A DNA stretch of 64,000 bases from Candidatus Buchananbacteria bacterium. GTDB taxonomy: Bacteria > Patescibacteriota > Patescibacteriia > CAIXNZ01. The stretch lies in the NCBI GenBank assembly GCA_014729025.1, contig WJKP01000014.1:543-64542 (forward strand), in the 5' to 3' direction. The notes below the pieces were generated by a model. The model did no database searches. It was not told where the DNA came from and saw only the letters and a list, made by a program, of their open reading frames with translations. Numbering within the stretch: the stretch's first letter is position 1; each line of letters starts with the position of its first letter. The translations under genes and the position numbers were made by a program. This document shows, in pieces, positions 27,102 through 62,739 of this stretch.

Positions 27102-27112
27102 ATTTTATAAAA

Positions 27113-27766: not shown

Positions 27767-27774
27767 AAATAAAA

Positions 27775-28206: not shown

Positions 28207-28209
28207 AAA

Positions 28210-29760: not shown

Positions 29761-29774
29761 AAAATATATTAATT

Positions 29775-32700
29775 TTAAGGAGTAGAGCCTTTTTTCTTTT
29801 CGCTTACCTTATAACCAATTTTTTTCATTTTACTTTTGAATTTCGCTAATTCACCATTAAAAGCTTTTGAATTAGGAGCTGTTTGTAAAGCTGATATTAA
29901 ATTATTAAATTCCTGTTCTACTAAATTGGGATCGATACTGTCTTCATTGAGAGCACCTCCTGTTATTTCATCTTTCAAATGCTTAATAAGTCCGTCTACT
30001 TTAAATTGCATTCTACTTGGATCTTTATTACCTTTTTCAAACTGCTCTTGAATTGAATCAGCATAATTACGCATTTTAACTGAAGCTGATTTCTTTAATT
30101 CTTCTGTATCTCTATGTCTATCTTTAATTTTTGATTCATTCTCAATTAATACTTCGGCTGTTTTGGTCGCATTAGAACCTTTCAATCCTGTATTATCGGA
30201 AATTTGCTTAGCTATAACTTTTATACGCTCCTGCTTATCTTGCTCCTCCTCAGTTGCTTCTAACATCTCAAAAGCTTCGTCGTCAATATATTTTACAGCT
30301 TGTTGCTTTGCAGTTGCTGAAGCGGCTGGTGGCATAACATTTTTCACATTATCTTCAATAACAGCTCGTGCGCCTTCTTTTTTTCTAATTTTATTAATTT
30401 TTTGGGCAATATTTTTATTTTTCGTACCCTCTTTTTGAACACGACCGTCATCATCATATTCGGCACTGACCGCTTTATATAATTTTTGGTGTCTTTCTAA
30501 TTCTGGGGCTGACAGATTAGCTGTTTGATCATCCATTTTTTTATAATATTTTTCGATCCTGGCTTCCCATTGGCTATCAGTTTCTGATAGACCTGTTGTC
30601 GGATCAATTCTGCGATGTAAGCTTTGATCAAAATGTTGTTTATTGTTTTCAATAATTTCTCTTCGCTCAGCATTATTTTGCGCAAAACGCATTTCTTCTT
30701 TAACTTTAACATTGGCACGCGAAGGATCATCCCAGCCTGAAACACTGGCTACTTTATAAGTCAAGCCGTCCATCTCTGCACCTGCAAAATCTGGAGATTC
30801 ACTTGGATCACCAAAATCTTTTTGCTTGGCTATCTTATTAGCTTGATCATCACTCACACTGGCCGTGCCTTCACGAACTTCTTTCCTTTTACTTTGTAAA
30901 ACATCACCCAATCTGGCCACATTATAAAAATCAGAACCAATATCAGTACCACTGCTTACCAAATTTTGTAAAGCTTCTTGTTTGTCTTGAGATAAATCCT
31001 TAAAAGCCTTTGAGCTTGTATCAAGTTTATAAGTACCGTCGTTATTTTTTTCAGTAATACTTTTCATTTCAACATCACTTAAATCGACTGCGTTACCACT
31101 ATTATCTACGGCATTACGCATAGAAGCCTCGCCTCTTTGTTCTAAGTCACTTAAATCTTCATATTCATTAGTTTCTTCATTATAAACCAATGAAGAAAAA
31201 GCTTTTTTCCTACCAGTTGATTTTTCCACTCGGTCTTCCATGTCTTCTAAAAATAATTGTTTTTCTAATTTATCCTTATCCTTAAAAAAACCTGCTTGTT
31301 GTAGCTGTTTAACTTCTTTATTGGTTAATTTACCATTATCAGCCAACGTCTGAGCATAAAATTCCATGGCTTCTTTATTTTTACTTACTGCATCTAAATC
31401 CTTAACATTACCGTCTTCATCTATATTAGTTTCACCCCCTAAAATTTCTTTTTTAAATTGTTTTTTAACTTCTGCGGCATTTTTTTTATTGATATCCGTC
31501 CTTGTTTCACCATAAGCTTCAGCATGCTTAGCATCAGTCTCTCTTTTTGTTGCACTACCTACAATCGGTTTTTTTATTGCTGCTTGTAATTTTTCCATTC
31601 CTCTAGCCCTTCCTGCCTTAGTTAAATATTTACCCACACGAGACCGTTCTAATCTTTGAGCTCCGGCTTCTCTAGTAGCACCTACTAAAGGCTTGGCTGC
31701 TCTACCAGCCCATCTAGCTGGGGCTGTTACGGCTCTGGCTGATCGTCTAGCACCTCTTTCCAGTGTATTTTGGGCGGTATTTTTCATTTTATCTGCGGCT
31801 CGGCCAGCCATTCCAGAACCAGCTACGGCAAATTCTTGAGAAAATTTTAAACCACCCACTAACATAAGAATCCCCATCATAATAGAAATCATATTATCCA
31901 TGCTACCGGCTTTACTATTAAGAATCTGCTGGCCTTGTCGTTTCCCAAAATCATATTGATCACTTGGTACCATTTGATCATGATTAAGATTAACCATGGT
32001 TAAAAGTGCTAGCCAAAGAAAAAAAGCCATAAAAGGACCGATCATACAATAATTGAAAAATTGCCCCCACCATTTACTGGCCAAAGAACCGACAGTACCA
32101 CCTTGTCCTTGAAAAACCCAAGCAAAAAAAGCTAATGGAGAAAAAACAACCAAAGCCCATAAAGCAACTATTCTAAAAGCCAAAATTATACAAAAAATTA
32201 ATAAAACAATCAAAGTAACTACAGTATAAATTAAACCTAAAATAGATGCAGCTATCATGGTTAGTCCTTCATTCCAATCTATTTTATCTTCTAAAGCACC
32301 AATGGGATCCTCAGCTATTCGAAACCAATCGGTCATGGCTAAACCTTTAAAAATATTACCGGCCGAAATATCCTTATAAGCATTAACAAAAGTTATCATT
32401 AAAACTTGGAAAAAATCTATAATTAAACCGCAAATAGTCTTGCTAAAATTTACCAAAATTGCCATAATCAATAGCCTGGCCAAAAGCTTATTCCATTGAT
32501 ATTTTTCAATTTTTAAAACAGTCACAAAAGCAATAAAAAGTAAGCCTAAAATAAAAAACATGTTAACCAAGTCACGCAAAATTACCCAGCCTTCATTAAC
32601 ATAGGGATTATCAATAAACCGATTATACATACTTATCCATACAATAACTTCCATCAGCAATATAACCAATTCCCCACAGAGCTGTGTCAAAACACCAATC

Positions 32701-32987
32701 AAAAAAACAAGACCACGAATAATAACAGTCCAAGCATTAGTAACGATCGATTTGCCTAATTCAGCAGCACCCTCTTTGACTTTAGCCTTAGCAGCGGATT
32801 GACCGGCACCCAAAAGTGCTTGGCCTATTGTAACGGCCGCTTGGATTTGAGCGTTGGCTTCTTTTATTTCTGATTTAAAATTAAATTCATTATCAATATC
32901 AATACTAATATTAAAAAATGTTAATAAAAAAAGAAAAAATAAAGGTATTATGATTATGTTTTTATGTTTTTTAAAAAAATTCAACAT
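29775..32987 (-). CDS. VirB6/TrbL-like polytopic membrane protein with about 650-aa charged C-terminal extension
   Basis: 1070 aa; signal/TM plus about 8-10 TM helices in the first 400 aa, then a long hydrophilic K/E-rich tail, as in extended VirB6 proteins. Confidence 0.5.
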   Translation of the reverse strand: MLNFFKKHKNIIIIPLFFLFLLTFFNISIDIDNEFNFKSEIKEANAQIQAAVTIGQALLGAGQSAAKAKVKEGAAELGKSIVTNAWTVIIRGLVFLIGVLTQLCGELVILLMEVIVWISMYNRFIDNPYVNEGWVILRDLVNMFFILGLLFIAFVTVLKIEKYQWNKLLARLLIMAILVNFSKTICGLIIDFFQVLMITFVNAYKDISAGNIFKGLAMTDWFRIAEDPIGALEDKIDWNEGLTMIAASILGLIYTVVTLIVLLIFCIILAFRIVALWALVVFSPLAFFAWVFQGQGGTVGSLASKWWGQFFNYCMIGPFMAFFLWLALLTMVNLNHDQMVPSDQYDFGKRQGQQILNSKAGSMDNMISIMMGILMLVGGLKFSQEFAVAGSGMAGRAADKMKNTAQNTLERGARRSARAVTAPARWAGRAAKPLVGATREAGAQRLERSRVGKYLTKAGRARGMEKLQAAIKKPIVGSATKRETDAKHAEAYGETRTDINKKNAAEVKKQFKKEILGGETNIDEDGNVKDLDAVSKNKEAMEFYAQTLADNGKLTNKEVKQLQQAGFFKDKDKLEKQLFLEDMEDRVEKSTGRKKAFSSLVYNEETNEYEDLSDLEQRGEASMRNAVDNSGNAVDLSDVEMKSITEKNNDGTYKLDTSSKAFKDLSQDKQEALQNLVSSGTDIGSDFYNVARLGDVLQSKRKEVREGTASVSDDQANKIAKQKDFGDPSESPDFAGAEMDGLTYKVASVSGWDDPSRANVKVKEEMRFAQNNAERREIIENNKQHFDQSLHRRIDPTTGLSETDSQWEARIEKYYKKMDDQTANLSAPELERHQKLYKAVSAEYDDDGRVQKEGTKNKNIAQKINKIRKKEGARAVIEDNVKNVMPPAASATAKQQAVKYIDDEAFEMLEATEEEQDKQERIKVIAKQISDNTGLKGSNATKTAEVLIENESKIKDRHRDTEELKKSASVKMRNYADSIQEQFEKGNKDPSRMQFKVDGLIKHLKDEITGGALNEDSIDPNLVEQEFNNLISALQTAPNSKAFNGELAKFKSKMKKIGYKVSEKKKGSTP

Positions 32988-32995
32988 AAGTTATT

Positions 32996-35900
32996 TTATT
33001 GGTAATCTTCTAAATTAATTAAAAATGGATAAAAAGTTATACAGGCATAAGGCTGATAATTATTATTCGTATCATATAAATCATTAAAAATGCCGTTATA
33101 AACCGGATTTAAAGTATCAAATTCCAAACACATACCTTCCAACCCATTAACCTCTGTCATGGTCTCTATTTCTGATGTATCCTCACAATCAGGATCTGGT
33201 AATGCTCCTTTTAATGTCTCTGGGGCATAACAAAGATTATTATTGGTTGGCTCATCAGGAAAATAGGTTGTAACTCCGCCGGCTTTAACTTCATAATAAT
33301 TGCACATATTACCCAAGGTATCTGGACTGGTTGACGGACTATAAGTATTTAAAATATTTTTATATTCTTGCTGTTGAGATAATTGAAAGGGCAAGGGTGA
33401 ACTTTTTTCCGGGAATATTTTGCAAATCGGTTCGGTATAGCGTTCATCATCTAAATTGCCTAACTCATTAACAACAGGGTATTGGTCAAATTGTTTATTT
33501 AATTCAGCTTCAATTGGGAATCTTTCCGGAATAGTATACCCTGAATAATCACCAGCTCGCCATTGAGTCAGCCTGGTTAATTCTCCAGCGCCAAAACGAT
33601 AAATATAACCGCTTTTACTTTCATAATCACTTATCCGCTTTACAACAATGGGATCAGAATCTAGATTATAACGCACATTATCTTTTTTAGGTGAAAATTT
33701 GGTACATTCACCGGCAAACTCTTCACGGCATAAATCAATTTCAGTACAAAAACCATTACTATCTTTTTCAGCACAAATTGCCCATTCAGCGCAATTGCGA
33801 TCTTTTTTAACTTTTAAAATCTCATTGGTATTATTAAAAGTATTTAAAAATTCAACACAGCCTTGATTCCAATCAACATTGGTACAAGCTGAACGATTAA
33901 TATCATTACCAGCATCTATTACAAAATAACTGTCTTCTGTATTATCTTTTATCTCTATTTGATCATAAAGAATATAAGAACTTGGACAATTTCCTTCATC
34001 AGTCCTTACATTTTCATTACGCGGCGCATAAATAATCACTTCATAATTTTGCAAATCGTCATATTCAATCCAATCATTAACTGGCTGATTATTTTCATCA
34101 ACAACTGATTCACAGTCAAGTTTGCTTGTAAAATTAGGATCTGAACATTCACCATGAGGAACCGTAAATAAAATCTCTACTTTTTTCCAGTCAGTTTCCG
34201 CCTCATAATTATAAGCTAAACCTGGTTCAGTATTGTTTTGATCAATATAACGATTAATCGCAATTGTCGCTTCAGGCAAAGGACAATCATCACCTTTACC
34301 TTGAGCGTCAGCCGGTACTTTATAATAAAAACTGGCTTTATAAGTTTTACCTTTTTCCAAAAAGGCTACTTTTTGTTTAATGCCAAAACTTGGCACCACA
34401 TCTTCATCCAATTCACAATCAGGATTATCACGAATATAAGTGCTTGGACAATCTTGCGTAGTATTTTTTATTAATTTAACGGCTTTTGAACCCGATTTAA
34501 CATCATCAGTTTCTATTTGTTGATTGCCGGCATCGGCTGCTATAGTTGTCCAACTTGAAAGGCGACCATCTGGATTAAATTCAAAGCTACCATTAGCTAC
34601 ATAATTAGGATTAATATCAACAAATTCATTGCAACCATCCCAGCGGTCATCACATTCACCGACATAACCTTTATATTTATTGGCTTCAAAAACTTTATAA
34701 ATAGTAAAAGGTGTAGCCAAACATTGCCCGCTATCAAGCCATTCGCCGTTTCCTAAAACACAAGATTCCTGATCATTGATATCATTTAAAATAACTGTAC
34801 ATTGATCATAATCAAGACTCCAGCCACCACCATTGGCTTCACACTCTTCTGGAGTATTATAAGCCAAAGAACCGCAACCCAAAGTTTGACTGCCTTTTTT
34901 AAACCAACCTTTAACGTTTTGGTTATTAACGATTTTTTCACCGTATTGACATAATTTAGTCGGTTCAATTTTATAATATTCAGGACTTCCCAATTCATTG
35001 ACTAATTCAGTGCAACCTAAACCTTGGTGACTGCACATAGTTGCTTGAGGTACATTAATATATCGGTCCGGATTATTTTTTAAATATATATCTTCAAAAC
35101 CGGTATTTTGCAAACCTTCAAAAATCGGTCGGCCAAATCTTTGACAACCTTTATTATTAGACGAGCACCGATAATTATCATCTAAAACCAATGTGATTAA
35201 TTCATCGCTTGGGACCTGATAATCATCCAAATAAGTCGTATTATCATTATTAAAATTCTGCTGATTAGGATTGATTGAATTTTGAGTATCCATTAAAACT
35301 TGACAGCCAACCGCACTTTCACGGCATAAATTAGTAAAAGATTTTAAATTATGCCTTTGCCCTAATGAATCATCATAAGCTTGGCAGCCTAACATGGGAT
35401 GGGGATCATTAGGGTCTTTGACGCCAAAAATATTTCTATCACAGCTATCCGGAGTAAACCAGCTATTTTTGAGCACATAAACATTATCGCGAATAACCCT
35501 AAGGGCAATATTATCCAAATAAATCGGTGTATCTATTTCAGTAAAAACTAATCGATTATCAGTTACATCTGACCAGCTAACCAAAACCGGTCCCAGATTA
35601 TAATTTTGCCATTCATCAGTCAATGTAATTTGATTATCAACTGAAGCAAATTCTTCTAAAGTTGTCTGATCTTCATCTGCTGTAGCAGTACTAAATCTTA
35701 TACTTATATCTTCACTTTGACCGGCTGATTTAGCCCAAAATGATAAAGTATAAAGATTACCTTGCTGAATATCAACCTGTTTATTAATACTATTAAATTC
35801 TGAGGGCACAAATAATGAATGGCCACCGACTTGAACTGACTCACCAACCATAGTTAAGCCACTACCTTGCTCAGACAAACCACTATACCAATCCAATTGA

Positions 35901-38900
35901 CCCTGCTCAAAATTGTCAAAAACTTGCATATAAACATTATTCCCCTGATTGCCAATAAAAGCCCGGCAACCATTAGCCTCAGCCCGGCAACTAATACCTT
36001 CGCTAGGAATAGCGTCATAAAGACAAGCATTTATATCACCTTGCCAGCGACCATTAGTAACCAAACAATTTTCTTCTGTTGATTCTGTTTTTCTATAAGG
36101 ATGGCAATCCTCGGATACAGAAATAGTTTTTCTAATATCACGATAATATTCATTGCCTTGATTATCAAAAAAATTAATACAATTAAAATCATTTTCTCCA
36201 ATCGTCAAACGACAATCACCTTCACCATCAATTATTTTTGGGGCGCCGGTCTGCTCATCTTGCTGAAATTCATATCTGACCAATTGCGGCGGGCCGCTAG
36301 ACGAACCTTGCCAACTAAAAAATGTTTTCTCCCCTAAATCAAGGTCAGGCCTAATACATTGTCTTAAATAAGTAAAATATTCTATACCTTCACCGCCTTG
36401 AGCAACTTCGTCTAAATTAGTAAATTGAGCACAACCAACTTCAGCGTAACTACATTGAGTTGCGGTTTCTGGAATAAAATAATGATAAAGCGGATCAGGC
36501 TCTGGTTCATATAAAGCTGCTTCCTGCTTATAAGTATCATAACCAACACATTCCGCGGGGCAATAATCAGTCGCACTAACTACGCCCGGTATATCAGGCC
36601 CGCCAGCTAATGGCGTATAAAGTTGACAGCCAGCTTCCTCTGCTAGACATATTTTGGAAAAATTATCACAAGCATCAGCGTCAGGTGCGTATTGATAACA
36701 ATCAATACTGTCTTTATATATTAATTCTTCATCCCAATAACCATTATTAGCTTGACAATTTTGTTTGGTTAATGGAGAAATATCTAAAACTGGAGCAGGA
36801 TCACCTTCGCCATACCCCTGACAATTTAAACGTTCTGGTGGCTTTTTATAATAAACTTTGCTGTTTAATTCATAATCCTGATACTGAGAAATAAAATTAT
36901 AATTTCTGACCTGTTCAATAGTATTAAGCGACAAATCAAGACCATCAACATAAACCGTGGCACCTGTCTGGCCGCCAGGTAAATTTAACCAAACATCCAG
37001 CTGCGTACCAGCATTAGTAGTAATTAAAGTACTATCAACTTGTGAATAAAATTCCGTGGCATAAATTTCATTACTATTAATTTCCTGATCACCGCCTAAA
37101 TAAGTTTTTACAAGATTAAAACCAATCGGTTGATTTAAGCTTTGATTGGCTGCAATATAAGCTGTTGCCGTATAAACATCACCGCCTTTGGTTAATATTT
37201 TATTATTATCATTAAAACTACTAGTATAGACTAATTGCAATTCTTCATTATCACCTAAATTACTGATATCTATTTCTAGTCGGCTCAACCCGCTATAAAC
37301 ATTAGAACCTTCTTTAGAAACCTGAGCCAAATCACTAAACGGGCCGTATCCGCGCCATTCACCTAAAAAATCATCACATTGATTTTTATTTTGCGGATTA
37401 TTAACTCGGTCATCAGAACCATACAAAGCAGCTCCCTGACAGAATTCTGACCAACTGGCATTATCATTGGCTAAACAATCTGCTTCCGATTGTAATTCGG
37501 GTTCATTTTTAACAACACCTTCAATTTGGCATTGCTCTACCCAAGCACCGCCATGGTTTAAACATTTATCTTCGGCGCTAACACCACCCTCATCAGTAAA
37601 TTGCGGGTTTGCGCATAAATTATATTTTAAAACACTATAAATACACGTTCTTTGATAATTACCGCCAGAGGCCAAACAATCGGTTTCATCAACATCCCTA
37701 TTAACTGCTACCTGACAAACATTAATCCAATTGGCTCCAGCTGCCAAACAATCTGCTTCTGTTTGACTTACCCCATCATTACAAATACTTTCCCAAGTCC
37801 CACCATTATTCAAACAAGTTACTTGATCAGCATAATTATAATCCAAACATATTTCATTATATCTACCATCCAATGATTCGCATTCACCCTCACCAGTAAC
37901 TCTGGCTTTTAATCTTAAATCCCAATTTTGGGGAAAATAACCTTGCTGAGTGTATTCAAAACTAGAATCAGTTACTAAATTATTATTAGGCTCACGATAT
38001 AAGAAAAATTCATTACAGCCCTCTTGATTCCGATCACAAATTTCCGCATAACGATTTAAATAAATTCTTTCAGATGCGCAACCTTGACCTTCTACCCAAG
38101 TCCCGTCAATGGCTGGGTCTGTACAAGTTGAATCATCAAATTCAGAAAAATCTTTCCATAATCCAGCTACGGTTTTAGTTGCATACCAAATACAACCGGC
38201 ATTATAATCACCGCAAGTATCACTACCGCTTAAAGTATTTTTTAAATAAGAAACTGACCGAGTACCTTGAGCATCAGTCAATGTATAGGTCCGACAACTA
38301 TTAAATTCTTCCGGGCAAGAGTCAGCTGTAAACTGCCAACTATTTTCTTCTTTAACACAAATGCCATAATCTTCATCAACACAACCACCTCGATCATCTT
38401 CTTTTAAACAGCTAGCAAAATCAGGACAGCTTGAATATCGCTGACCGGTTGAATTCGTAACCAATAACTCGTTATAAGGCTCCAGATCTGTTTTTAAAGC
38501 GCATTTGGTAGCTGGTAATTTTAAAACCCAATTAGGATCAACTAAATTACAAAACGGCGATTCATCAATATCAAAATCACCGCAACGACCTGAACCAGCT
38601 TTATAAAAACCATTAACTACATCGGCTAAAGTCGCATTAACAACTTGATTTAATTTTTGTTGATTATAAGCTTTGATTTCATCTAAATCTTCTGCGCCAA
38701 ACCCGGCATACGGTTTAAAAATACAATTCCTTAATTTTTGAGTTTTATAAGGTTCAACATCAAATAAATTGTAACCATAACGTGAACAATCAGTCCCAGC
38801 GTCACAAATGTCTTGGAATTCATCATAATCGATTTCTTGCCTATAATTACAATCTCTAATTAATTCAGCTGCCAATTCTAAGCCTAAGGGCACTACTCTG

Positions 38901-40909
38901 GCTTTTCTTAATTTTTTAATATTAGCTAAATGATAAGTACCCGGTTCAGTTTCTTCTCCCCAAGAAAATTTATAATCACCGATTAATTTTCTTTGCTCCA
39001 TTGCCTGCGTAATTGTTAATTCATCATTAATTGCTAAAGCAAAATTAGGGTCTATAACATTATTATAAATATTAGGATTAACCTCCCCTTCAAGGTTTAA
39101 CTGAAATTCTGATAATAAATCCACATCTTTATAAGAATAATTGACCTGATATTGTTTAGCCAATCTTTCCACATAACTCCTTACTCCTTCACCAGTAATT
39201 ACTTCTTGCTCAAATGGATTATAAATATCAAGAAACGGTGCTGGTTCAAAACCAGGTTGTTCCAATTCGCTAGCGGTTTTTTTTAATTTTTTATAAGATT
39301 CTGTTTCCTGTTCCCCGCTATATAATGCTTGTAATAATCTTTGGGTCAATTCGTTCCAAAGTGTTTCCAAAAATACGCCTAAAGCATCAGCAGCAATGTT
39401 TTTTGTATAATAACTGGCTGTTTTTTTACCGGCCACAATATCTTCTTCGGCTTTTTTTCGTATAATATTAGACGGTGTCCTAATAGTATCACCGATTCTA
39501 TCGGTTATTGATTTCCAGCCATTATTAACTGTTGCCTGCAAATGACGATTTAAAGCTTCATTTAAACCGATTGTTGCCATTTCCCTAGATAAAGTCTCAT
39601 AAGCATTAAATTCATTGGCTTCAGGACTAAATAAATCTTTAGCTAAAGCAAAATTATAAGCTGCACTGCCTTCAAAAAAATCAGGGTTAAGTTGTTCACG
39701 AACCTGAGTTCTTAAAAATTCAAAACCACTTTTTAATGAATTAGTCAAATTAATAACATAATTAACTTTAGTAGTATAATCATTTCTAAATGCTCTTTCT
39801 AATTGCTCACCCAATTCTGGGCCAACCCGCGCAGAAGTCGGGGGTGGAGTAACATTTAAATCATTTAAAATTACTTCGCATCTGCCCGGCCGATTAGCCA
39901 ATTCAGCCGGACCTTTGTTTTTACAAAAATTATAAGTATCTTGAATTTGATCAATTTTTTCTATTTGCGGATTAATTTTATTAACCCAAGCTTCTCTAAT
40001 TAATGGAATATTTTCCGGTACTATCCGATAACTGCCAATACCTTGACTTAATTGGGCTTCAGTATCAGATAAAGCATAATTAAGCATTATACTAACATCA
40101 TTTTCCATTTCTTGGGTATTTCTTTTTAAATTATCAGCACTCTCTTTTAAAGCTCTTTGAATACTGTTTTCCGGACAAATAACATTTAAACCTTCATTTA
40201 ATACTGAACAATCAACACTATAACCATTTAACCTAAAATCCCAAATTTGCAAAGTTTGGTCTTGAGTTAAAACTGTTGTCATTAATTCAGTATTTTCTTG
40301 AAATTGTCCGCCAGCGCCAATCCCAAAATCAGCAGAAATAAAATCTTCTAAATTTCTTTGGCCTATCTCTTCCCAGTGGCTTCTTAATTCTGTCCAGGAA
40401 CAATCAGGTTGATAGCCTTGCCATTCCGGAAAGGACGGAATATTTATAGCTAAATCAATTGCAATACTGGGATCAAGAGTACAAACATTAATACCAGTCA
40501 CATCTTGTATTACTGTCTGCACAAAATCACCAATCGCTGCATCGGCATAGCCGGAAACAAACCCCTCAAGATCAGTAATAAATTGAGGTCCCTCACCTTG
40601 ACCGCCACTAGCCACCCAAACCGCTGTTTGCTGCGCCATTAAATTAGCTAAATTCCCCAAAACATTTTTAAAAAAAACCGCTTTAATTTCGTCCCAAATT
40701 TTAGACAGCAATCTGTCAGTTGATTCTTCTGTCTGATAAATCGTATCTATTGCTGTTTTATTTGGCACTGATCCCATTTCAATAACCGGTAAAGGTACTG
40801 GTTGGGCATTAACCTTTGATACATCTACATAAAAATTAGTTAAAATAAAAATTAAAGCAATAATACCAATTATAACTTTTTTAAATTTTGTTAAATTAGG
40901 CTTTAGCAT
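32996..40909 (-). CDS. Giant (2637 aa) secreted/anchored cysteine-rich surface protein with CBM4/9-like (NGSFE...W) beta-sandwich modules and tandem Cys motifs
   Basis: N-terminal signal/TM; Cys-poor first ~700 aa then highly Cys-rich; tandem DCLxxGGxWxxxC repeats (about nt 37430-37880); three segments starting like CBM_4_9 domains (SSFEYTQQGYFPQNW, DNFEQGQLDW, NGSFEFNPDGRLSSW). Confidence 0.6.
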   Translation of the reverse strand: MLKPNLTKFKKVIIGIIALIFILTNFYVDVSKVNAQPVPLPVIEMGSVPNKTAIDTIYQTEESTDRLLSKIWDEIKAVFFKNVLGNLANLMAQQTAVWVASGGQGEGPQFITDLEGFVSGYADAAIGDFVQTVIQDVTGINVCTLDPSIAIDLAINIPSFPEWQGYQPDCSWTELRSHWEEIGQRNLEDFISADFGIGAGGQFQENTELMTTVLTQDQTLQIWDFRLNGYSVDCSVLNEGLNVICPENSIQRALKESADNLKRNTQEMENDVSIMLNYALSDTEAQLSQGIGSYRIVPENIPLIREAWVNKINPQIEKIDQIQDTYNFCKNKGPAELANRPGRCEVILNDLNVTPPPTSARVGPELGEQLERAFRNDYTTKVNYVINLTNSLKSGFEFLRTQVREQLNPDFFEGSAAYNFALAKDLFSPEANEFNAYETLSREMATIGLNEALNRHLQATVNNGWKSITDRIGDTIRTPSNIIRKKAEEDIVAGKKTASYYTKNIAADALGVFLETLWNELTQRLLQALYSGEQETESYKKLKKTASELEQPGFEPAPFLDIYNPFEQEVITGEGVRSYVERLAKQYQVNYSYKDVDLLSEFQLNLEGEVNPNIYNNVIDPNFALAINDELTITQAMEQRKLIGDYKFSWGEETEPGTYHLANIKKLRKARVVPLGLELAAELIRDCNYRQEIDYDEFQDICDAGTDCSRYGYNLFDVEPYKTQKLRNCIFKPYAGFGAEDLDEIKAYNQQKLNQVVNATLADVVNGFYKAGSGRCGDFDIDESPFCNLVDPNWVLKLPATKCALKTDLEPYNELLVTNSTGQRYSSCPDFASCLKEDDRGGCVDEDYGICVKEENSWQFTADSCPEEFNSCRTYTLTDAQGTRSVSYLKNTLSGSDTCGDYNAGCIWYATKTVAGLWKDFSEFDDSTCTDPAIDGTWVEGQGCASERIYLNRYAEICDRNQEGCNEFFLYREPNNNLVTDSSFEYTQQGYFPQNWDLRLKARVTGEGECESLDGRYNEICLDYNYADQVTCLNNGGTWESICNDGVSQTEADCLAAGANWINVCQVAVNRDVDETDCLASGGNYQRTCIYSVLKYNLCANPQFTDEGGVSAEDKCLNHGGAWVEQCQIEGVVKNEPELQSEADCLANDNASWSEFCQGAALYGSDDRVNNPQNKNQCDDFLGEWRGYGPFSDLAQVSKEGSNVYSGLSRLEIDISNLGDNEELQLVYTSSFNDNNKILTKGGDVYTATAYIAANQSLNQPIGFNLVKTYLGGDQEINSNEIYATEFYSQVDSTLITTNAGTQLDVWLNLPGGQTGATVYVDGLDLSLNTIEQVRNYNFISQYQDYELNSKVYYKKPPERLNCQGYGEGDPAPVLDISPLTKQNCQANNGYWDEELIYKDSIDCYQYAPDADACDNFSKICLAEEAGCQLYTPLAGGPDIPGVVSATDYCPAECVGYDTYKQEAALYEPEPDPLYHYFIPETATQCSYAEVGCAQFTNLDEVAQGGEGIEYFTYLRQCIRPDLDLGEKTFFSWQGSSSGPPQLVRYEFQQDEQTGAPKIIDGEGDCRLTIGENDFNCINFFDNQGNEYYRDIRKTISVSEDCHPYRKTESTEENCLVTNGRWQGDINACLYDAIPSEGISCRAEANGCRAFIGNQGNNVYMQVFDNFEQGQLDWYSGLSEQGSGLTMVGESVQVGGHSLFVPSEFNSINKQVDIQQGNLYTLSFWAKSAGQSEDISIRFSTATADEDQTTLEEFASVDNQITLTDEWQNYNLGPVLVSWSDVTDNRLVFTEIDTPIYLDNIALRVIRDNVYVLKNSWFTPDSCDRNIFGVKDPNDPHPMLGCQAYDDSLGQRHNLKSFTNLCRESAVGCQVLMDTQNSINPNQQNFNNDNTTYLDDYQVPSDELITLVLDDNYRCSSNNKGCQRFGRPIFEGLQNTGFEDIYLKNNPDRYINVPQATMCSHQGLGCTELVNELGSPEYYKIEPTKLCQYGEKIVNNQNVKGWFKKGSQTLGCGSLAYNTPEECEANGGGWSLDYDQCTVILNDINDQESCVLGNGEWLDSGQCLATPFTIYKVFEANKYKGYVGECDDRWDGCNEFVDINPNYVANGSFEFNPDGRLSSWTTIAADAGNQQIETDDVKSGSKAVKLIKNTTQDCPSTYIRDNPDCELDEDVVPSFGIKQKVAFLEKGKTYKASFYYKVPADAQGKGDDCPLPEATIAINRYIDQNNTEPGLAYNYEAETDWKKVEILFTVPHGECSDPNFTSKLDCESVVDENNQPVNDWIEYDDLQNYEVIIYAPRNENVRTDEGNCPSSYILYDQIEIKDNTEDSYFVIDAGNDINRSACTNVDWNQGCVEFLNTFNNTNEILKVKKDRNCAEWAICAEKDSNGFCTEIDLCREEFAGECTKFSPKKDNVRYNLDSDPIVVKRISDYESKSGYIYRFGAGELTRLTQWRAGDYSGYTIPERFPIEAELNKQFDQYPVVNELGNLDDERYTEPICKIFPEKSSPLPFQLSQQQEYKNILNTYSPSTSPDTLGNMCNYYEVKAGGVTTYFPDEPTNNNLCYAPETLKGALPDPDCEDTSEIETMTEVNGLEGMCLEFDTLNPVYNGIFNDLYDTNNNYQPYACITFYPFLINLEDYQ

Positions 40910-46318: not shown

Positions 46319-47416
46319 TCAACTTTTTAACTTTAAATAAGCTTCAATAAATCCTTCCAAATTGCCGTCCAAAACCGATTGGATATCTTTTTCTTCATAT
46401 TTAGTGCGATGATCTTTAACCATTTGATATGGCTGCATTACATATGATCTAATCTGATTACCCCAAACCGCTTCAGAATATTCACCACGCAACTGTTTTT
46501 TTTCTTCTTCTTTTTCAGCTTCAGCCAATTGCTGGAGCTTGGCTTTTAAAATTTTTAAAGCTCTCTCTTTATTTTGCAGCTGCGAACGTTCTGACTGGCA
46601 AGAAACAGTAATCTTGGTCGGTAAATGAGTAAGCCTGACCGCCGAATCAGTAGTATTAACCGATTGACCACCATGACCTGATGATCTAAAAGTATCTATT
46701 TTTAAATCTTCCGATTTGATTTGCAAATCAATTTCCTCATCAACTTCGGGAATCACTTCAACCAAAGCAAACGAAGTATGGCGCATAGCTTCGGCATCAA
46801 AAGGCGAAATGCGCACTAAACGATGTACACCATGTTCTGATTTTAAATTACCATAAGCATAATTGCCCTGCACTTCAAAAAATACGCTTTTAATGCCGGC
46901 TTCAGAACCGGAATTAATATTTAAAATTTTAGTGGTAAATCCTTTTTTTTCGCAAAAGCGTAAATACATGCGTAATAAAATTTCAGCCCAATCCTGGGCA
47001 TCAATTCCGCCTGTGCCGCTATGAATAGCCACCAAAGCATTGCGACGATCATATTTGCCGCGAAATAATAAATAAAATTCCAAATCCGTAAATTTTTTAA
47101 CTAATTCTTGATATTTAGTTTCTATCTCCTTACGTAAATTAACAGTTTGATCTTTTTTATCCAATTGAGCCATTTCTAATAAATTATTGACTTCATCTCT
47201 TATTGTCGTCCAAGTTGCAATTTCTTGCTTTAAATCATTGGCTTTTTGACTGATTTTTTTAGCCTCTTCTTGGTCTTGCCAAAAATCCGGCTGATTCATT
47301 AATTTTTCCAGCTTTTTTAATTCTTCAATTTTATTATCAATTTCAAGAAAACCCCAGGATTGTTTAATTTTAGTTTTTAGGTCCTGAAGTTGACTGACTA
47401 GTTCTTGTTCTTTCAT
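46319..47416 (-). CDS. prfB: Peptide chain release factor 2, single uninterrupted ORF
   Basis: 365 aa; SPF and GGQ motifs (RISPFD, SGHGGQSVNTTDSAVRLTHLPT); no programmed +1 frameshift site. Confidence 0.88.
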   Translation of the reverse strand: MKEQELVSQLQDLKTKIKQSWGFLEIDNKIEELKKLEKLMNQPDFWQDQEEAKKISQKANDLKQEIATWTTIRDEVNNLLEMAQLDKKDQTVNLRKEIETKYQELVKKFTDLEFYLLFRGKYDRRNALVAIHSGTGGIDAQDWAEILLRMYLRFCEKKGFTTKILNINSGSEAGIKSVFFEVQGNYAYGNLKSEHGVHRLVRISPFDAEAMRHTSFALVEVIPEVDEEIDLQIKSEDLKIDTFRSSGHGGQSVNTTDSAVRLTHLPTKITVSCQSERSQLQNKERALKILKAKLQQLAEAEKEEEKKQLRGEYSEAVWGNQIRSYVMQPYQMVKDHRTKYEEKDIQSVLDGNLEGFIEAYLKLKS

Positions 47417-53034: not shown

Positions 53035-53499
53035 TTATTTTTTTTTCTTTTTTTTAAATACGGCATTGATTTCTTTTTGAAAAGTCGCCAAATCTTTAAA
53101 AGCATGATAAACAGAAGCAAAACGAATATAAGCGACTGGATCTTTCTTTTTTAATTCTTTCATAATAATATCACCTACTTCTTGACTGGTAATCTCAATT
53201 TTTTTGGTAGCTTGAATCTGTCTTTCTATTTTATTAACCAAAATTCGGAAAGCTTCGTCTTTAATCGGCCGTTTTTGAAAAGCTTTTCGCAAACCCTTCT
53301 CTAGCTTCTCACGAGAATAACCTTCTTTATAGCCATTCCGCTTAATAACCATTAATTCCAATAATTCCACTTGCTCATAAGTACTAAAACGAAAACCGCA
53401 TTTCAAACATTCTCGTCTGCGCCTAATAGTAATACCATCAGAAGCCACACGCGAGTCAATTACCTTGGTCTCTTTATAATTACAGACAGGACATTTCAT
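53035..53499 (-). CDS. nrdR: Transcriptional repressor NrdR
   Basis: 154 aa; MKCPVCNYKETKVIDSR zinc ribbon plus ATP-cone. Confidence 0.92.
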   Translation of the reverse strand: MKCPVCNYKETKVIDSRVASDGITIRRRRECLKCGFRFSTYEQVELLELMVIKRNGYKEGYSREKLEKGLRKAFQKRPIKDEAFRILVNKIERQIQATKKIEITSQEVGDIIMKELKKKDPVAYIRFASVYHAFKDLATFQKEINAVFKKKKKK

Positions 53500-54185: not shown

Positions 54186-54662
54186 TTAATTTAATAAATA
54201 AAGATAATAATTTAAAACCGCGGCAAAACTGACCCAAGCCAAATACGGGATCAATAAATAAGCGGCTGGCTTAGCTATTTTATAAAAATAAATTATGGTT
54301 AATAATATAAAAAACCATAAAATTAAAATTTCCATAAAACCAGCTAATGGATTTTGTAAATAAAAAAATAAAAACGACCAAGCAATATTTAAAATCCATT
54401 GAATACCAAAAAAAATAAAAGCTTTAGTTTTTACCTCTTGTTTTCCCTTCTTGCTCCAAACTAAATATAAAGCAATACCCATCAACAAAAATAAAGTTGT
54501 CCAAACCGGGCCAAATACCCAGCCCGGCGGATTAAATCCGGGTTTTTCCAGTGTTAAATACCAGGTACTAACTGATTGAGCCGTAAAAATTGAACCAATT
54601 CCTCCGGCTGCCTGACAAATAATCAGCGAGATAATTAGTTTTATCCAATTTATTTTTGACAT
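54186..54662 (-). CDS. tspO: TspO/MBR family tryptophan-rich sensory protein
   Basis: 158 aa, 5 TM, W-rich (WYLTLEKPGFNPPGWVFGPVWTTLFLLMGIALYLVW). Confidence 0.75.
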   Translation of the reverse strand: MSKINWIKLIISLIICQAAGGIGSIFTAQSVSTWYLTLEKPGFNPPGWVFGPVWTTLFLLMGIALYLVWSKKGKQEVKTKAFIFFGIQWILNIAWSFLFFYLQNPLAGFMEILILWFFILLTIIYFYKIAKPAAYLLIPYLAWVSFAAVLNYYLYLLN

Positions 54663-55414: not shown

Positions 55415-55918
55415 TTATAGTTTTCTAGAATCATAAGCCCAATGTAAAACTGCTTGTCTTTGTTTTTTACGGCAATCCCAGTCTTTTTTAGCACAATTTT
55501 TTTTAATTTGAGCGATATGGCGTTTAAATGATTTCCAACGTTTAATTTGTCGCTCATCGTCAGGACAACGTCTACCTAGATAATACCGGCAATACCATTG
55601 AAACCAGCCACGCGGGTCTTCATGATAAATCCAGCCTTTTTTACGCCAAACTGATAATGGCTGCGAAGCATTAACCCCGAAAAAATTTTTATCAGGATCA
55701 TGTTTTTCCGAATCTAATTTAGCGTTTTTAAACCAGTCTTTAGGAAATTCTGACTGGCAATCAGTCATGTATTTACCGCCAAACACGCCTAATTCTAACA
55801 TTTGCTTGGGAGTTAATTCTGGTTTAAATTCCTGAGCAAAATTTTCACCAGTCGGTTCGGTCAAATAATAAATATAGTTTTTTTGCATTTTATCATTAAC
55901 AACGATTTTTTGTTTCAT
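55415..55918 (-). CDS. Hypothetical protein (Trp/Cys/Arg-rich C-terminus)
   Basis: 167 aa; no recognised motif. Confidence 0.35.
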   Translation of the reverse strand: MKQKIVVNDKMQKNYIYYLTEPTGENFAQEFKPELTPKQMLELGVFGGKYMTDCQSEFPKDWFKNAKLDSEKHDPDKNFFGVNASQPLSVWRKKGWIYHEDPRGWFQWYCRYYLGRRCPDDERQIKRWKSFKRHIAQIKKNCAKKDWDCRKKQRQAVLHWAYDSRKL

Positions 55919-55929
55919 AAAAAGAATTA

Positions 55930-56547
55930 TTATTTGGCCTGGCTAGTAACAGTATAATAACCAAAAATTATTTTAGTAATAAAATCAAGCAATAAATACA
56001 TTAAAGCTGTGATAGCTGGAGTTAAAATTTCAAACCCAGTCGGCGCCAATAACCAAATTATAGGAAAAAAACTCCAGGTTATTGTCACGTACCAGCGAAT
56101 TTGTTTAATGAATTTATTGTCCTTAGCTGAATTTTTATGGATAATTTTTAAAATAATAATAAAAGCCAAACTACTGAGAATGAAAAAAATCCATTTATAA
56201 GGAGCCAAAATTATACTGGCTAAAAATCCGGTTAACATGACGATTGAATTCAAAACTATCATTTCTACAGTTTCAATCTTGGTCTTATTTAAAATCCTGG
56301 CAATTTCATACATTAATAAACCACAGCTTAAAATATAAAATAACCAACGAGTCGGATAAATCGGGTCACCTAAAGGTGAGGCAAAAACACCAACACCAGT
56401 TATTAATACCGCGTAAGAAACAGTAGTAGTAAAAAAAACTAATCGGTTGATAGCCACAAAATCATTTTTTTTCCTTAACAAGGGAAAGAATAAAGCAACT
56501 ATCAAAAATAATAAAAACCCGACTAAAAAAATACTTGTTTGCGTCAT
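55930..56547 (-). CDS. Microbial (type-1 fold) rhodopsin, short schizorhodopsin/AntR-like form
   Basis: 205 aa, 7 TM; helix-F W158-S-F-F-P162-I-I-W165 and helix-G D188-F-I-T-K192 match bacteriorhodopsin WSAYPVVW / DVSAK with identical spacing (W to K = 34); helix C RWLFYILSCGLLMYE gives F/S/E at BR positions 85/89/96. Confidence 0.6.
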   Translation of the reverse strand: MTQTSIFLVGFLLFLIVALFFPLLRKKNDFVAINRLVFFTTTVSYAVLITGVGVFASPLGDPIYPTRWLFYILSCGLLMYEIARILNKTKIETVEMIVLNSIVMLTGFLASIILAPYKWIFFILSSLAFIIILKIIHKNSAKDNKFIKQIRWYVTITWSFFPIIWLLAPTGFEILTPAITALMYLLLDFITKIIFGYYTVTSQAK

Positions 56548-56568: not shown

Positions 56569-57150
56569 TTATAATGCTTGTTTTGCTAATTTATTTATTT
56601 TATTTAACCATTTTTGCCTTTTATTTTTGGTTGAATTTTTTATTGGTCCCAAAATTAAAGTTTTAACCGGCCAGACACCAATAAAAAATAAGACTCCGTA
56701 TTTTAATGATTTTAAACCGGAATGACCGAATAATTTATAAAATAAAACCAAACCGTCTACAGTAGTTATTAATCTGGCTGTTTTACCTTTTAAATAACGT
56801 TTAGGTAAAGGTAATAATGAATTTTCTTTATACTTAAAAGCAAAACCAGGTAAAATTGTCCTGTCAATAAAACCTTTTAAAAGCGCCGGATATGAATACC
56901 ACCAGGTCGGAAAAATGAACACCAAATGATCGGCCCAGTCTATTTTTTGCTGCATTTTAACCAAATCAGGTTCTAGTTTTTGGATTTTTTTATAACCTTT
57001 ATATAAAATGGGATCAAATTTTAATTCTCCCAAATAAACTAATTCGACATTATAACCTGATTTTTTAGCAGCTTTTTTATAATGACGGGCAATCGCTCCG
57101 TTAAAACTGTTTTTATCCGGATGACCTAAAATTATCAAGATTTTTTTCAT
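56569..57150 (-). CDS. Flavodoxin-fold NAD(P)H-dependent oxidoreductase (quinone reductase-like)
   Basis: 193 aa; MKKILIILGHPDKNSFNGAIA N-terminus typical of NAD(P)H dehydrogenase (quinone)/MdaB-type proteins. Confidence 0.7.
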   Translation of the reverse strand: MKKILIILGHPDKNSFNGAIARHYKKAAKKSGYNVELVYLGELKFDPILYKGYKKIQKLEPDLVKMQQKIDWADHLVFIFPTWWYSYPALLKGFIDRTILPGFAFKYKENSLLPLPKRYLKGKTARLITTVDGLVLFYKLFGHSGLKSLKYGVLFFIGVWPVKTLILGPIKNSTKNKRQKWLNKINKLAKQAL

Positions 57151-57201: not shown

Positions 57202-57540
57202 ATGAAAACACAAAAACGACTTAGTATCGCTTTACTGACCGGTACGGGACTGGGTATTTTATGTATTATCGGTGTTGGTGTCAGGCTAGGATTTGCTGGT
57301 AATGAATTGTTTTTGCTGGCTACTTGGTATAATCGTTTATTAATGGGTTTGGTAATTGGTTTGGCCGGTGCCTGGCAATTAAGTAAAAGTAAAGCTAATC
57401 CTTTATTACGCGGTCTTGTCCTGGGTTTAATGGTTAGTTTAGCTTTATTTTTAAGTACTGAATTAAAAGATCCTGTTGGCTTTTTAGCTGGTATTGTCTA
57501 TGGCATTATTATTGATTTTGTTGCCAGTAAATACGCTTAA
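57202..57540 (+). CDS. Hypothetical 3-TM membrane protein
   Basis: 112 aa; followed by hairpin plus T-run at about 57550-57580. Confidence 0.4.
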   Translation: MKTQKRLSIALLTGTGLGILCIIGVGVRLGFAGNELFLLATWYNRLLMGLVIGLAGAWQLSKSKANPLLRGLVLGLMVSLALFLSTELKDPVGFLAGIVYGIIIDFVASKYA

Positions 57541-57869: not shown

Positions 57870-58268
57870 TTAATCTTTATTTTTATCAAATTTTAAGGCT
57901 AAAGAATTAATACAATAACGTTTATTGGTTGGCTGAGGGCCGTCTTTAAATAAATGGCCCAAATGGCTACCACATTGCGCGCAAACAACTTCTACCCTGT
58001 CCATGCCATGACTTTTATCAGGTTGCAATTTAACATTGCCTTGTTGTATCACATCATAAAAACTGGGCCAGCCAGTACCTGAATCAAATTTTGTTTCTGA
58101 AGAAAATAAAGGGTTATTGCAAGCCGCACAACTATAAATACCAGTTGCTTTATTGCGCAGTAATTTACCGGAAAAAGCCGGTTCAGTGCCTTTTTCGCGC
58201 AAAATATGGTATTGTTCAGAACTTAATTGTTCTTGCCAATCTTGTTTATTTTTTTTGATTTGTTTCAT
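57870..58268 (-). CDS. msrB: Peptide-methionine (R)-S-oxide reductase
   Basis: 132 aa; CxxC...CxxC zinc site and GTGWPSF active-site motif. Confidence 0.9.
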   Translation of the reverse strand: MKQIKKNKQDWQEQLSSEQYHILREKGTEPAFSGKLLRNKATGIYSCAACNNPLFSSETKFDSGTGWPSFYDVIQQGNVKLQPDKSHGMDRVEVVCAQCGSHLGHLFKDGPQPTNKRYCINSLALKFDKNKD

Positions 58269-58277
58269 ATTTAATGG

Positions 58278-58772
58278 TTAAAAGCCGCAAAGTTTGGCTT
58301 TTAATTTATGTTTTTTATAATAATCCTGATGATATTCTTCAGCCGGATAAAACTCAGCTACTGGTTTGATTTCAGTAACAATCTCTTTTTTATATTGGTC
58401 GGATTGAGCTAAATTTTTTTTTGATTGTTTGGCCAACATTTTTTGTTTTTGATTATGATAAAAAATAACTGAACGGTACTGGCTGCCAATATCAAGACCT
58501 TGTTGGTTTAATTGGGTTGGATCATGAATTTCCCAAAATTTTTCCAATAATTGTTCGTACGATATTTTATTGGGATCATAAATTACCTGGCAAACTTCTG
58601 CATGACCGGTCTGGCCGGTTGAGACTTGTTTATAGCTGGGATCTTTAACGTGTCCGCCCATAAATCCGACGGTTGTTGCTTTAACGCCTTTAAACTGATC
58701 AAAAGCCTGCTGTACGTGCCAAAAACAACCAGCGCCAAAAGTTGCTTTTTGTAAATTAGTTTTATTGGACAT
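58278..58772 (-). CDS. msrA: Peptide-methionine (S)-S-oxide reductase
   Basis: 164 aa; GCFWHVQ active site. Confidence 0.9.
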   Translation of the reverse strand: MSNKTNLQKATFGAGCFWHVQQAFDQFKGVKATTVGFMGGHVKDPSYKQVSTGQTGHAEVCQVIYDPNKISYEQLLEKFWEIHDPTQLNQQGLDIGSQYRSVIFYHNQKQKMLAKQSKKNLAQSDQYKKEIVTEIKPVAEFYPAEEYHQDYYKKHKLKAKLCGF

Positions 58773-61309: not shown

Positions 61310-61375
61310 TAAATATTCTTTGTACTACTGCCTAATTCCTAATACCTATTGCCTGCCTTAATTTTAACTTTAATT
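61248..61375. repeat. 128-bp direct repeat, copy 1 (covers the first about 20 codons and upstream region of CDS 60080..61309)
   Basis: Identical by eye to 62521..62648. Confidence 0.8.
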
Positions 61376-61394
61376 ATAAGTAAAGTCAAAGATA

Positions 61395-61423
61395 TTGACA
61401 AAAATTAAAATATGTGCTATGAT
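61395..61423 (+). promoter_or_regulatory. Promoter module 1: AGTCAAAG-TTGACA-17-TATGAT
   Basis: Consensus -35, 17-nt spacer, good -10; followed by SD AAAAAGGAGGAAAA and ATG at 61485. Confidence 0.5.
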
Positions 61424-61484
61424 ATAATAATTCATCCTCCTTTACCCTGATTAAAAAGGGATTGTCCCAAAAAAAGGAGGAAAA

Positions 61485-61772
61485 ATGGAACTTCATCTCG
61501 GATTGGAAAATCAGCAGCTGTACAAAGGCTGCGAGGTAACTGAAGTAGCAGGGCGCATGACCCTGACTACTCCGGTTGAGGAAGCGGTCAACATTGTTGG
61601 CCGCAACATTAAGGAAATAGTGGACGCAACAGAGGATCGGGAAGAAATCGTTCTGACTGGTCCTATGGCTGTGTGGAGCTACTTAGTAGTTTTCCACGCA
61701 GTAGTTCACTCTTTCAAAAAAGTCTTTTATGCTGACGGCAAAGGCGATAAAGTCTTGATTGCCATGCATTAA
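61485..61772 (+). CDS. Hypothetical 95-aa protein, GC-rich relative to the genome (roughly 46-48% vs about 30%)
   Basis: Strong SD, intrinsic terminator downstream; no recognised motif. Confidence 0.5.
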   Translation: MELHLGLENQQLYKGCEVTEVAGRMTLTTPVEEAVNIVGRNIKEIVDATEDREEIVLTGPMAVWSYLVVFHAVVHSFKKVFYADGKGDKVLIAMH

Positions 61773-61783
61773 ACAGGTCCGAC

Positions 61784-61813
61784 GAGGGGAACCTTTAATC
61801 CCCTCTTTTTTTA
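61784..61813 (+). terminator. Rho-independent terminator
   Basis: GAGGGGA-loop-TCCCCTC then TTTTTTTT. Confidence 0.65.
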
Positions 61814-61883
61814 TTGGCAAAATTATTTCAAATAAAATTTTAAAAAAACAATTGCTGTTTTAATTTTAGCCAAAGTCAAAGCT

Positions 61884-61912
61884 TGACAATTTATAAAAAT
61901 AAGGTTAAATTA
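61884..61912 (+). promoter_or_regulatory. Promoter module 2: AGTCAAAGC-TTGACA-17-TAAATT
   Basis: Same architecture as modules 1 and 3; followed by SD AAGGAGGAAA and ATG at 61963. Confidence 0.5.
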
Positions 61913-61962
61913 ATATATACGATAATTTTGTAAAAATGATCTTTTTAAAAAAGGAGGAAATC

Positions 61963-62025
61963 ATGGGTAAAGGCGCTAAGTCAAAGGTGAAAAAAATTCA
62001 AGCAAAGATAAAATTTAAATTTTAA
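61963..62025 (+). CDS. 20-aa lysine-rich peptide MGKGAKSKVKKIQAKIKFKF
   Basis: Consensus promoter, perfect SD, terminator immediately after the stop codon; function unknown. Confidence 0.4.
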   Translation: MGKGAKSKVKKIQAKIKFKF

Positions 62026-62056
62026 GCCGCCTGATAAAAAATCAGGCGGCTTTTAC
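62026..62056. terminator. Bidirectional terminator GCCGCCTGAT-loop-ATCAGGCGGC shared by convergent small ORFs
   Basis: 10-bp perfect stem with A-run on one side and T-run on the other. Confidence 0.65.
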
Positions 62057-62062
62057 TTGCTG

Positions 62063-62233
62063 TCATCTACGCGAATACTTTTTTTTATCGCCAGTGCATC
62101 CAAGTATTGTTTTTATACGGCCGCTACCACCACAGGCTGAACAAGTTGTAGTGGTACAGCTATTACTGTCACCACGACTGATAACCTGTTTCTTGCCAGA
62201 ACCACCACAGGAAGAACAACTTTTCCATCCCAT
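62063..62233 (-). CDS. 56-aa DnaJ-type zinc-finger (CxxCxGxG x2) small protein
   Basis: Hand translation MGWKSCSSCGGSGKKQVISRGDSNSCTTTTCSACGGSGRIKTILGCTGDKKKYSRR; SD GAGGAGG 8 nt upstream; below ORF-track cutoff. Confidence 0.5.
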   Translation of the reverse strand: MGWKSCSSCGGSGKKQVISRGDSNSCTTTTCSACGGSGRIKTILGCTGDKKKYSRR

Positions 62234-62520
62234 CTTAATTACCTCCTCAGATGATTTAAAAAATTTAACTATTTCACTTTTTCCATCTATATATAACCTC
62301 CTTCTTAAAAAATAAAGCTAAAAAATGCCCCTTATTAAGGTTACATATAATAAATTAATTTGTCAAGCCCAAAAATAAAATAGCTCATAAGAACTATTTT
62401 TCATATTTTATTTTTATTATAACAAAACAAACATCATATTTTAAAAACCATCTGAAAGATGATATACTTTCTTAGTAATTATCAATTTTATGCAAGTACC
62501 AAGAGGTAAAAATAGATGAT

Positions 62521-62648
62521 AAAATAATAAAACATAAAATTATTTTTTTCATAAATTTGTAATTAATAATTATTATTTTCAATAAATATTCTTTGTACTA
62601 CTGCCTAATTCCTAATACCTATTGCCTGCCTTAATTTTAACTTTAATT
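62521..62648. repeat. 128-bp direct repeat, copy 2 (carries a truncated duplicate of the 5' end of CDS 60080..61309)
   Basis: Identical by eye to 61248..61375. Confidence 0.8.
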
Positions 62649-62665
62649 TTAGTCAAAGTTAAAGC

Positions 62666-62694
62666 TTGACAAAACATAAAGATGATGTTAAATT
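62666..62694 (+). promoter_or_regulatory. Promoter module 3: AGTCAAAGTTAAAGC-TTGACA-17-TAAATT
   Basis: Followed by SD AAAAAAGGAGGAAACA and ATG at 62740. Confidence 0.5.
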
Positions 62695-62739
62695 AGACTA
62701 TTCAATCTTAAACAAAGAACCTTAAAAAAGGAGGAAACA

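Follow-up and report, generated by a model that had tools for sequence, protein, structure and literature searches.

Schizorhodopsins (SzRs) are rhodopsins that pump H+ inward, and in SzR1 the E81Q mutation led to the loss of all activity, with the proton not being trapped on Glu81 (PMC7148096). Putative SzRs were reported by Wong et al. 2020 (Microbiome 8:135, PMC7495880) in metagenome-assembled genomes (MAGs) of Parcubacteria, Asgard, DPANN and Bathyarchaeota from the hypersaline mats of Shark Bay. More recently many SzRs were shown to be bacterial, mostly from Patescibacteria, and when expressed in E. coli two of them, paSzR from Patescibacteria and psSzR from a cyanobacterium, pumped H+ inward (bioRxiv 10.1101/2025.10.15.682728). 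The purpose of light-driven inward H+ pumping is not agreed upon for the family as a whole, and its occurrence in host-dependent bacteria with minimal genomes sharpens the question. The gene studied here encodes a protein of 205 amino acids (aa) with an ATG start (55930..56547, minus strand; GenBank MBD3359336.1) and lies in a stretch of 64,000 nucleotides (nt) of contig WJKP01000014.1, from Candidatus Buchananbacteria bacterium, which is referred to below as the window. Judged by its likeness to characterised family members, it is most probably (at roughly 0.85) a schizorhodopsin of this bacterium, a member of the class ABY1, that would serve as a light-driven inward H+ pump in a Shark Bay hypersaline mat.

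The finding itself has been known at the level of the exact sequence since 2020. The window protein is identical at 205/205 residues to that of Bin_492_Buchananbacteria in Table S2 of PMC7495880, and its GenBank record is named 'schizorhodopsin [Candidatus Buchananbacteria bacterium]'. Bin_492 is a genome of 1.08 Mb (WJKP00000000) with 32.65% GC and 74.75% completeness, classified in GTDB as p__Patescibacteria; c__ABY1; o__Buchananbacterales (PMC7495880 Table S1). For its SzR that study gave only a phylogenetic affiliation and a 45.6% BLAST match to a Lokiarchaeota SzR, without residue-level, neighbourhood or functional analysis (PMC7495880), and the later preprint names neither ABY1 nor Buchananbacteria nor Shark Bay (bioRxiv 10.1101/2025.10.15.682728). 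The original prediction for this locus, made from the letters of the window alone, held that a light-driven pump in such an organism would be notable; this was true in 2020 and has since been overtaken by PMC7495880, by the GenBank name and by the 2025 preprint. What is added here is contig-level evidence for the patescibacterial host, a possibly distinct lineage with unusual Thr157 and Gly76, and a set of conserved TspO/Msr neighbours, which are discussed in neither PMC7495880 nor bioRxiv 10.1101/2025.10.15.682728.

The Pfam family Bac_rhodopsin (PF01036) matched residues 3-200 of the window protein with an E value of 2.7e-23 and a score of 83 bits against a gathering cut-off of 24.6, and the match to rhodopsins is therefore well beyond chance; there were no matches in NCBIfam. 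Among PDB chains the best sequence matches were SzR4 (7e4g, E 9.5e-43) and then AntR (9or2, E 4.9e-35), followed by sensory rhodopsin II (5.7e-16), a cyanobacterial chloride pump and bacteriorhodopsin in a range of about 1e-16 to 1e-10, so that SzR4 and AntR lead sensory rhodopsin II and bacteriorhodopsin by about 20 orders of magnitude in E. An AlphaFold model built with an alignment of 40 relatives (mean predicted local distance difference test score 92.2) shows seven transmembrane helices, the sixth of which has a kink at P162. The top Foldseek match of this model in the PDB was 7e4g_A (template modelling score 0.91/0.94, root-mean-square deviation 1.5 A over 200 columns), and the AntR entries 9ork, 9ot0 and 9or2 came next.

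Residues were mapped in a MAFFT alignment of the window protein with bacteriorhodopsin, SzR4, AntR, paSzR and psSzR, while helix limits were taken from the AlphaFold model and helix coordinates were calculated from the start of the open reading frame (ORF). In helix C (residues 65-85; 56293..56355, minus strand) the bacteriorhodopsin residues R82, D85, T89, T90 and D96 correspond to R67, F70, S74, C75 and E81, and the helix, which also contains G76, reads T-R-W-L-F-Y, without the RYxDW carboxylates. In helix F (residues 145-167; 56047..56115, minus strand), which also carries T157 and F161, W182, P186 and W189 correspond to W158, P162 and W165. In helix G (residues 177-203; 55939..56019, minus strand) D212 and K216 correspond to D188, at the counterion position, and K192, the retinal Schiff-base lysine (codon at 55972-55974, minus strand). 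The spacings from W158 to K192 (34) and from P162 to D188 (26) are identical to those of bacteriorhodopsin. The residues S44, Y45, R67, W68, F70, Y71, S74, C75, L78, W158, F161, P162, Y184, D188, T191, K192 and F195 are invariant in 40 family members, and E81 is nearly so. Thus the claims of the original prediction concerning the protein itself, i.e., a seven-helix protein of 205 aa, helices F and G matching those of bacteriorhodopsin at Lys192, Trp158 and Pro162 with equal spacings, and a helix C with Arg67 at the Arg82 position and F, S and E in place of the usual carboxylate pattern, were all borne out by the alignment and the model.

The Phe-Ser-Glu (FSE) columns agree among the window protein (F70/S74/E81), SzR4 (F70/S74/E81) and paSzR (F64/S68/E75). 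Two further hallmarks of the SzR family, a Cys at the position of bacteriorhodopsin T90 and a lone Asp counterion (PMC7148096), are present as C75 and as D188, the only counterion at the D212 position. In sequence and fold the window protein has all the features that define a schizorhodopsin, and the earlier assignment to the schizorhodopsin/AntR type is supported by the PDB search, the motif columns and the overlay on the SzR4 structure.

The closest characterised relative is SzR4 (PDB 7E4G), an inward H+ pump of Asgard archaea (Lokiarchaeia), which is 45-46% identical to the window protein over the full length. The two share the numbering of helix C (R67, F70, S74, C75, E81), N100, the Trp at the position of bacteriorhodopsin W189, the D/K pair of helix G, a size of about 200 aa and short loops. 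However, the host of SzR4 is archaeal whereas that of the window protein is patescibacterial, S76 and F153 of SzR4 are replaced by G76 and T157, and the E-F loop of the window protein is 4 residues longer. AntR (PDB 9OR2), paSzR and psSzR belong to the same family and have the FSE motif, the helix-C Cys and bacterial hosts, and paSzR, like the window protein, comes from Patescibacteria. Nevertheless they are just 35-42% identical to the window protein. The residue preceding the Trp of helix F is Gly in them and Thr in the window protein; at the W189 position they carry Phe instead of Trp, and at the D115 position Thr instead of Asn. The host classes are also different, the bacterial SzRs of the preprint belonging to Minisyncoccia/UBA9973 and JACMRA01 (bioRxiv 10.1101/2025.10.15.682728) and the window protein to ABY1/Buchananbacterales. 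In the PDB search, xenorhodopsins were missing from the close sequence matches of the window protein. These proteins, such as PoXeR and NsXeR, are the other natural inward H+ pumps and resemble SzRs in having no extracellular acceptor of the Asp85 type. PoXeR has a different cytoplasmic acceptor, Asp216 (PMC7148096), and the xenorhodopsins form a family separate from the SzRs.

The chromophore site (K192, W158, P162, Y184 and D188) and the SzR proton path (F70, S74, C75 and E81) are intact in the window protein, and K192, D188, F70, S74, C75 and E81 have exact counterparts in SzR4. F70 occupies the place of the proton-acceptor Asp of outward pumps, and E81 is the cytoplasmic carboxylate. By analogy with the characterised family members, all-trans retinal would be bound at K192 and would be isomerised by light, after which the Schiff-base proton would be released to the cytoplasm by a route requiring E81. 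The Schiff base would then be reprotonated from outside, with a net movement of one H+ inward per photocycle. The K/R-rich loops at 25-29, 87-90 and 138-151 support a predicted topology with the N terminus outside and the C terminus inside, the one known from type-1 rhodopsins and SzRs.

Several points weigh against pumping of this kind by the window protein. Inward pumping has been demonstrated for SzR1-4, AntR, paSzR and psSzR, all of which are outside the lineage formed by the window protein and P0001-P0015. The window protein departs from every characterised SzR at two activity-tuning positions, T157 (Phe153 in SzR4, Gly in AntR, paSzR and psSzR) and G76 (Ser76 in SzR4). Mutation of the paSzR glycine equivalent to T157 severely impaired pumping, mutation of the position equivalent to G76 lowered activity, and Glu81 was dispensable in AntR (bioRxiv 10.1101/2025.10.15.682728); the last of these means that the proton path varies within the SzR family. 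Moreover, the window carries no blh/brp, crt or other retinal-synthesis gene, as detailed below, so that the holoprotein in vivo is a putative one. As a separate observation, the SzR of Bin_582 Uhrbacteria, P0034 and P0039 have Ser or Thr in place of Glu81, giving FSS or FST motifs, and inward pumping in these proteins would have to work without a cytoplasmic carboxylate.

Scans of window ORFs of at least 100 aa with Pfam or NCBIfam gave no retinal-biosynthesis gene, in agreement with the earlier claim that none is visible in the window; three real ORFs lay outside these scans, at 32996-40909, at 46319-47416 (judged to encode a release factor from its synteny with L002, the rhodopsin locus of a second assembly described below) and at 53035-53499 (NrdR, likewise by synteny). 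A CrtI homologue inside the window was considered and rejected, since tblastn with the CrtI of a relative found none. Because the window has no carotenoid or retinal-forming gene, retinal is probably supplied by neighbouring organisms of the mat. The lack of blh/brp and crt genes in the window, together with the small size of genomes of the candidate phyla radiation (CPR), that of the window MAG being 1.08 Mb, could also be taken to mean that the organism has an intact gene without a working product, an apoprotein or relic for which no retinal is available. This is quite improbable. Although identity within the lineage has fallen to 49-61%, every residue of the retinal pocket and the proton path is kept, a sign that purifying selection acts on a functional chromophore site. 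The abundance of carotenoids in sunlit mats likewise counts against a silent gene. Furthermore, in a relative with an SzR 57% identical to the window protein (L005), a gene for a CrtI-family phytoene desaturase (L005 7268-8761, plus strand; TIGR02734, E 1.6e-125, 420 bits against a cut-off of 238) is located 1.2 kb upstream of the rhodopsin gene, so that a partial carotenoid pathway may persist in some of these small genomes.

The nearest labelled relatives of the protein are archaeal (Nanoarchaeota Bin_444 with 46.8% and SzR4 with 45.3% identity), and binning artefacts have been warned of for rare bacterial phyla (bioRxiv 10.1101/2025.10.15.682728). An archaeal gene that was mis-assembled or mis-binned, with the bacterial host as an artefact, therefore had to be considered, the more so as the record of the closest relative bears a gammaproteobacterial title. 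The present evidence refutes this explanation, to which we give almost no weight. The gene lies mid-contig within a single 64-kb stretch that also carries bacterial or CPR-like genes, i.e., PheS, PheT (pheT_bact), RecG, RadA, ComF, HtrA, a ClpB/C-type ATPase, NrdD, RseP, MurI, LemA, HtpX, a DsbA-like protein, PrgI, a T4SS (type IV secretion system) pilin and a CD1110-type VirB4. The PheT encoded in the window matches MBD3359291.1 [Candidatus Buchananbacteria bacterium] at 100% identity; the named sequences closest to it after that one come from Falkowbacteria, Buchananbacteria, Parcubacteria and 'Patescibacteria group' and are 66-70% identical. The GC content of the window is 30-36% throughout (0.324 overall), and the rhodopsin gene, with a GC of 0.303 and a third-codon-position GC (GC3) of 0.286, is in line with its neighbours. 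A scan of genome contigs gave a single relative, contig CAZHFK010000016.1 of an independent assembly (GCA_964531215.1; L001/L002). The gene order of the window is preserved there for 15.3 kb, with 87.5% of the nucleotides identical, and a rhodopsin with 92% identity is encoded at the corresponding position. Three further loci with rhodopsins of this lineage (L003-L005), whose GC is 31-34%, also carry genes of bacterial type (DnaG, NusB, RNase III, Lgt and SpoVG). Because of this contig context, the matching GC and GC3, the independent assembly and the three further loci, the possibility of a mis-binned archaeal gene was rejected; the rhodopsin gene is a genuine part of a patescibacterial genome. 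As for the record of CAZHFK010000016.1, its title, 'uncultured Gammaproteobacteria bacterium', is contradicted by the collinearity with Buchananbacteria, and since this extends over 15.3 kb at the identity given above the label is almost certainly wrong.

The rhodopsin gene is part of a tightly spaced, co-directional string on the minus strand, which in order of transcription consists of msrA, msrB, a DUF378 gene, a flavodoxin-like reductase gene, the rhodopsin gene, a 167-aa ORF, a 223-aa ORF, tspO and a 126-aa ORF. The only terminator-like site on this strand within the string is located inside msrB. The two methionine sulfoxide reductase genes upstream of the rhodopsin gene, msrA (58278-58772, minus strand; Pfam PMSR, E 3.7e-65) and msrB (57870-58268, minus strand; Pfam SelR, E 1.6e-52), have counterparts close to the rhodopsin genes of L002, L003 and L005. 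The gene for the flavodoxin-like NAD(P)H oxidoreductase (56569..57150, minus strand; Pfam Flavodoxin_2, E 7.8e-38) is 21 nt upstream of the rhodopsin gene and is found in the same position in L002. TspO/MBR proteins are porphyrin-binding proteins tied to responses to light and oxygen. The gene for such a tryptophan-rich sensory protein belongs to the same string (54186..54662, minus strand; Pfam TspO_MBR, E 7.7e-51), and TspO is likewise close to the rhodopsin in L002, L003 (8042-8524) and L004 (10891-11295). Thus parts of the neighbourhood recur beside rhodopsins that are just 50-57% identical to the window protein (L003, L004 and L005). No paper mentioning schizorhodopsin and TspO together was found in the literature searched. 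A small gene on the plus strand (57202-57540) also lies within the string.

The 167-aa gene (55415..55918, minus strand) begins 11 nt downstream of the rhodopsin gene and is found directly 3' of it in the window, L002, L003 and L005, the proteins being 82-90% identical to one another. It had no matches in Pfam (E up to 10), in PHROGs or among PDB sequences. A role as a dedicated partner of the rhodopsin was considered for this protein and rejected, because homologues exist in thousands of genomes and none of three homologues that were checked in other genomes had a rhodopsin nearby (0/3).

The conserved neighbours TspO, MsrA/MsrB and the flavodoxin-like reductase hint at a module for the response to light and oxidative stress rather than for energy capture. 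The same gene string could suggest that the protein is mainly a light sensor or regulator, or a very weak pump, that signals to the products of co-transcribed neighbours (TspO, the 167-aa protein and the redox enzymes) instead of moving H+ in useful amounts. The deviations of T157 and G76 at activity-tuning positions would fit such a role, as would the slow photocycles and low transport rates of bacterial SzRs and the description of the physiological role of SzRs as elusive (bioRxiv 10.1101/2025.10.15.682728). However, all SzRs tested to date pump H+ inward, there is no transducer-like or signalling domain fused or adjacent to the rhodopsin, and the 167-aa neighbour is present in many genomes without a rhodopsin nearby. 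We therefore regard a sensory or very weakly pumping protein as unlikely and retain the reading of the gene as an inward H+ pump.

A search of 5.8 billion proteins gave only about 15 sequences with 49-92% identity to the window protein, and the other matches are at or below 45%. In a neighbour-joining tree with labelled references, the window lineage was monophyletic in 81% of the bootstraps; it grouped with the set of AntR, paSzR, psSzR and Uhrbacteria in 4% and with the set of SzR4, Lokiarchaeota, Bathyarchaeota and Nanoarchaeota in 40%. At position 100 the lineage has Asn, as do the SzR4-type archaeal proteins, where the AntR-type bacterial proteins have mostly Thr; at position 165 it has Trp, again as in the SzR4 type, against Phe in the AntR type. 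The N100 and W165 of the window protein are thus archaeal-type signature residues. At position 157 the three groups are all different, with mostly Thr in the window lineage, Phe in the SzR4 type and Gly in the AntR type. On these sequence comparisons, the window lineage would fall outside the 'Bacterial clade' of Marin et al. 2025 (AntR, GSS_AntR, SzR2, paSzR and psSzR). This placement is provisional, since it is based on distance methods and a limited set of references and not on the full data set of the preprint authors. The lineage may be one of the two 'exceptions' mentioned in the preprint (bioRxiv 10.1101/2025.10.15.682728).

It is conceivable, and for the present rather doubtful, that the SzRs of Buchananbacterales (ABY1) represent a separate bacterial lineage that was acquired independently of the 'Bacterial clade', perhaps by transfer from archaea of the same mats with SzR4-like proteins, and that is distinguished by a third residue state, Thr157, and by the conserved cluster of TspO, MsrA/MsrB and flavodoxin-like genes. 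If this were true, Thr157 would be a third state at a site in helix F on which both colour and pumping depend, and the genetic setting would point to the handling of light and oxidative stress and not to energy capture.

Elsewhere in the window there is a block resembling a conjugation or type IV secretion apparatus (25155-40909, minus strand, and 17782-18324, plus strand), which includes VirB4 (CD1110 family) and a PrgI-family protein. The block also comprises unannotated proteins of 516 aa and 1070 aa and an ORF of 2637 aa that lay outside the family scans, and the T4SS pilin gene is 7 kb away. The 1.4 kb at 61310-62739 contain small ORFs only, among them one for a 56-aa peptide rich in Cys and Gly with CxxC-type repeats (62063-62233, minus strand).
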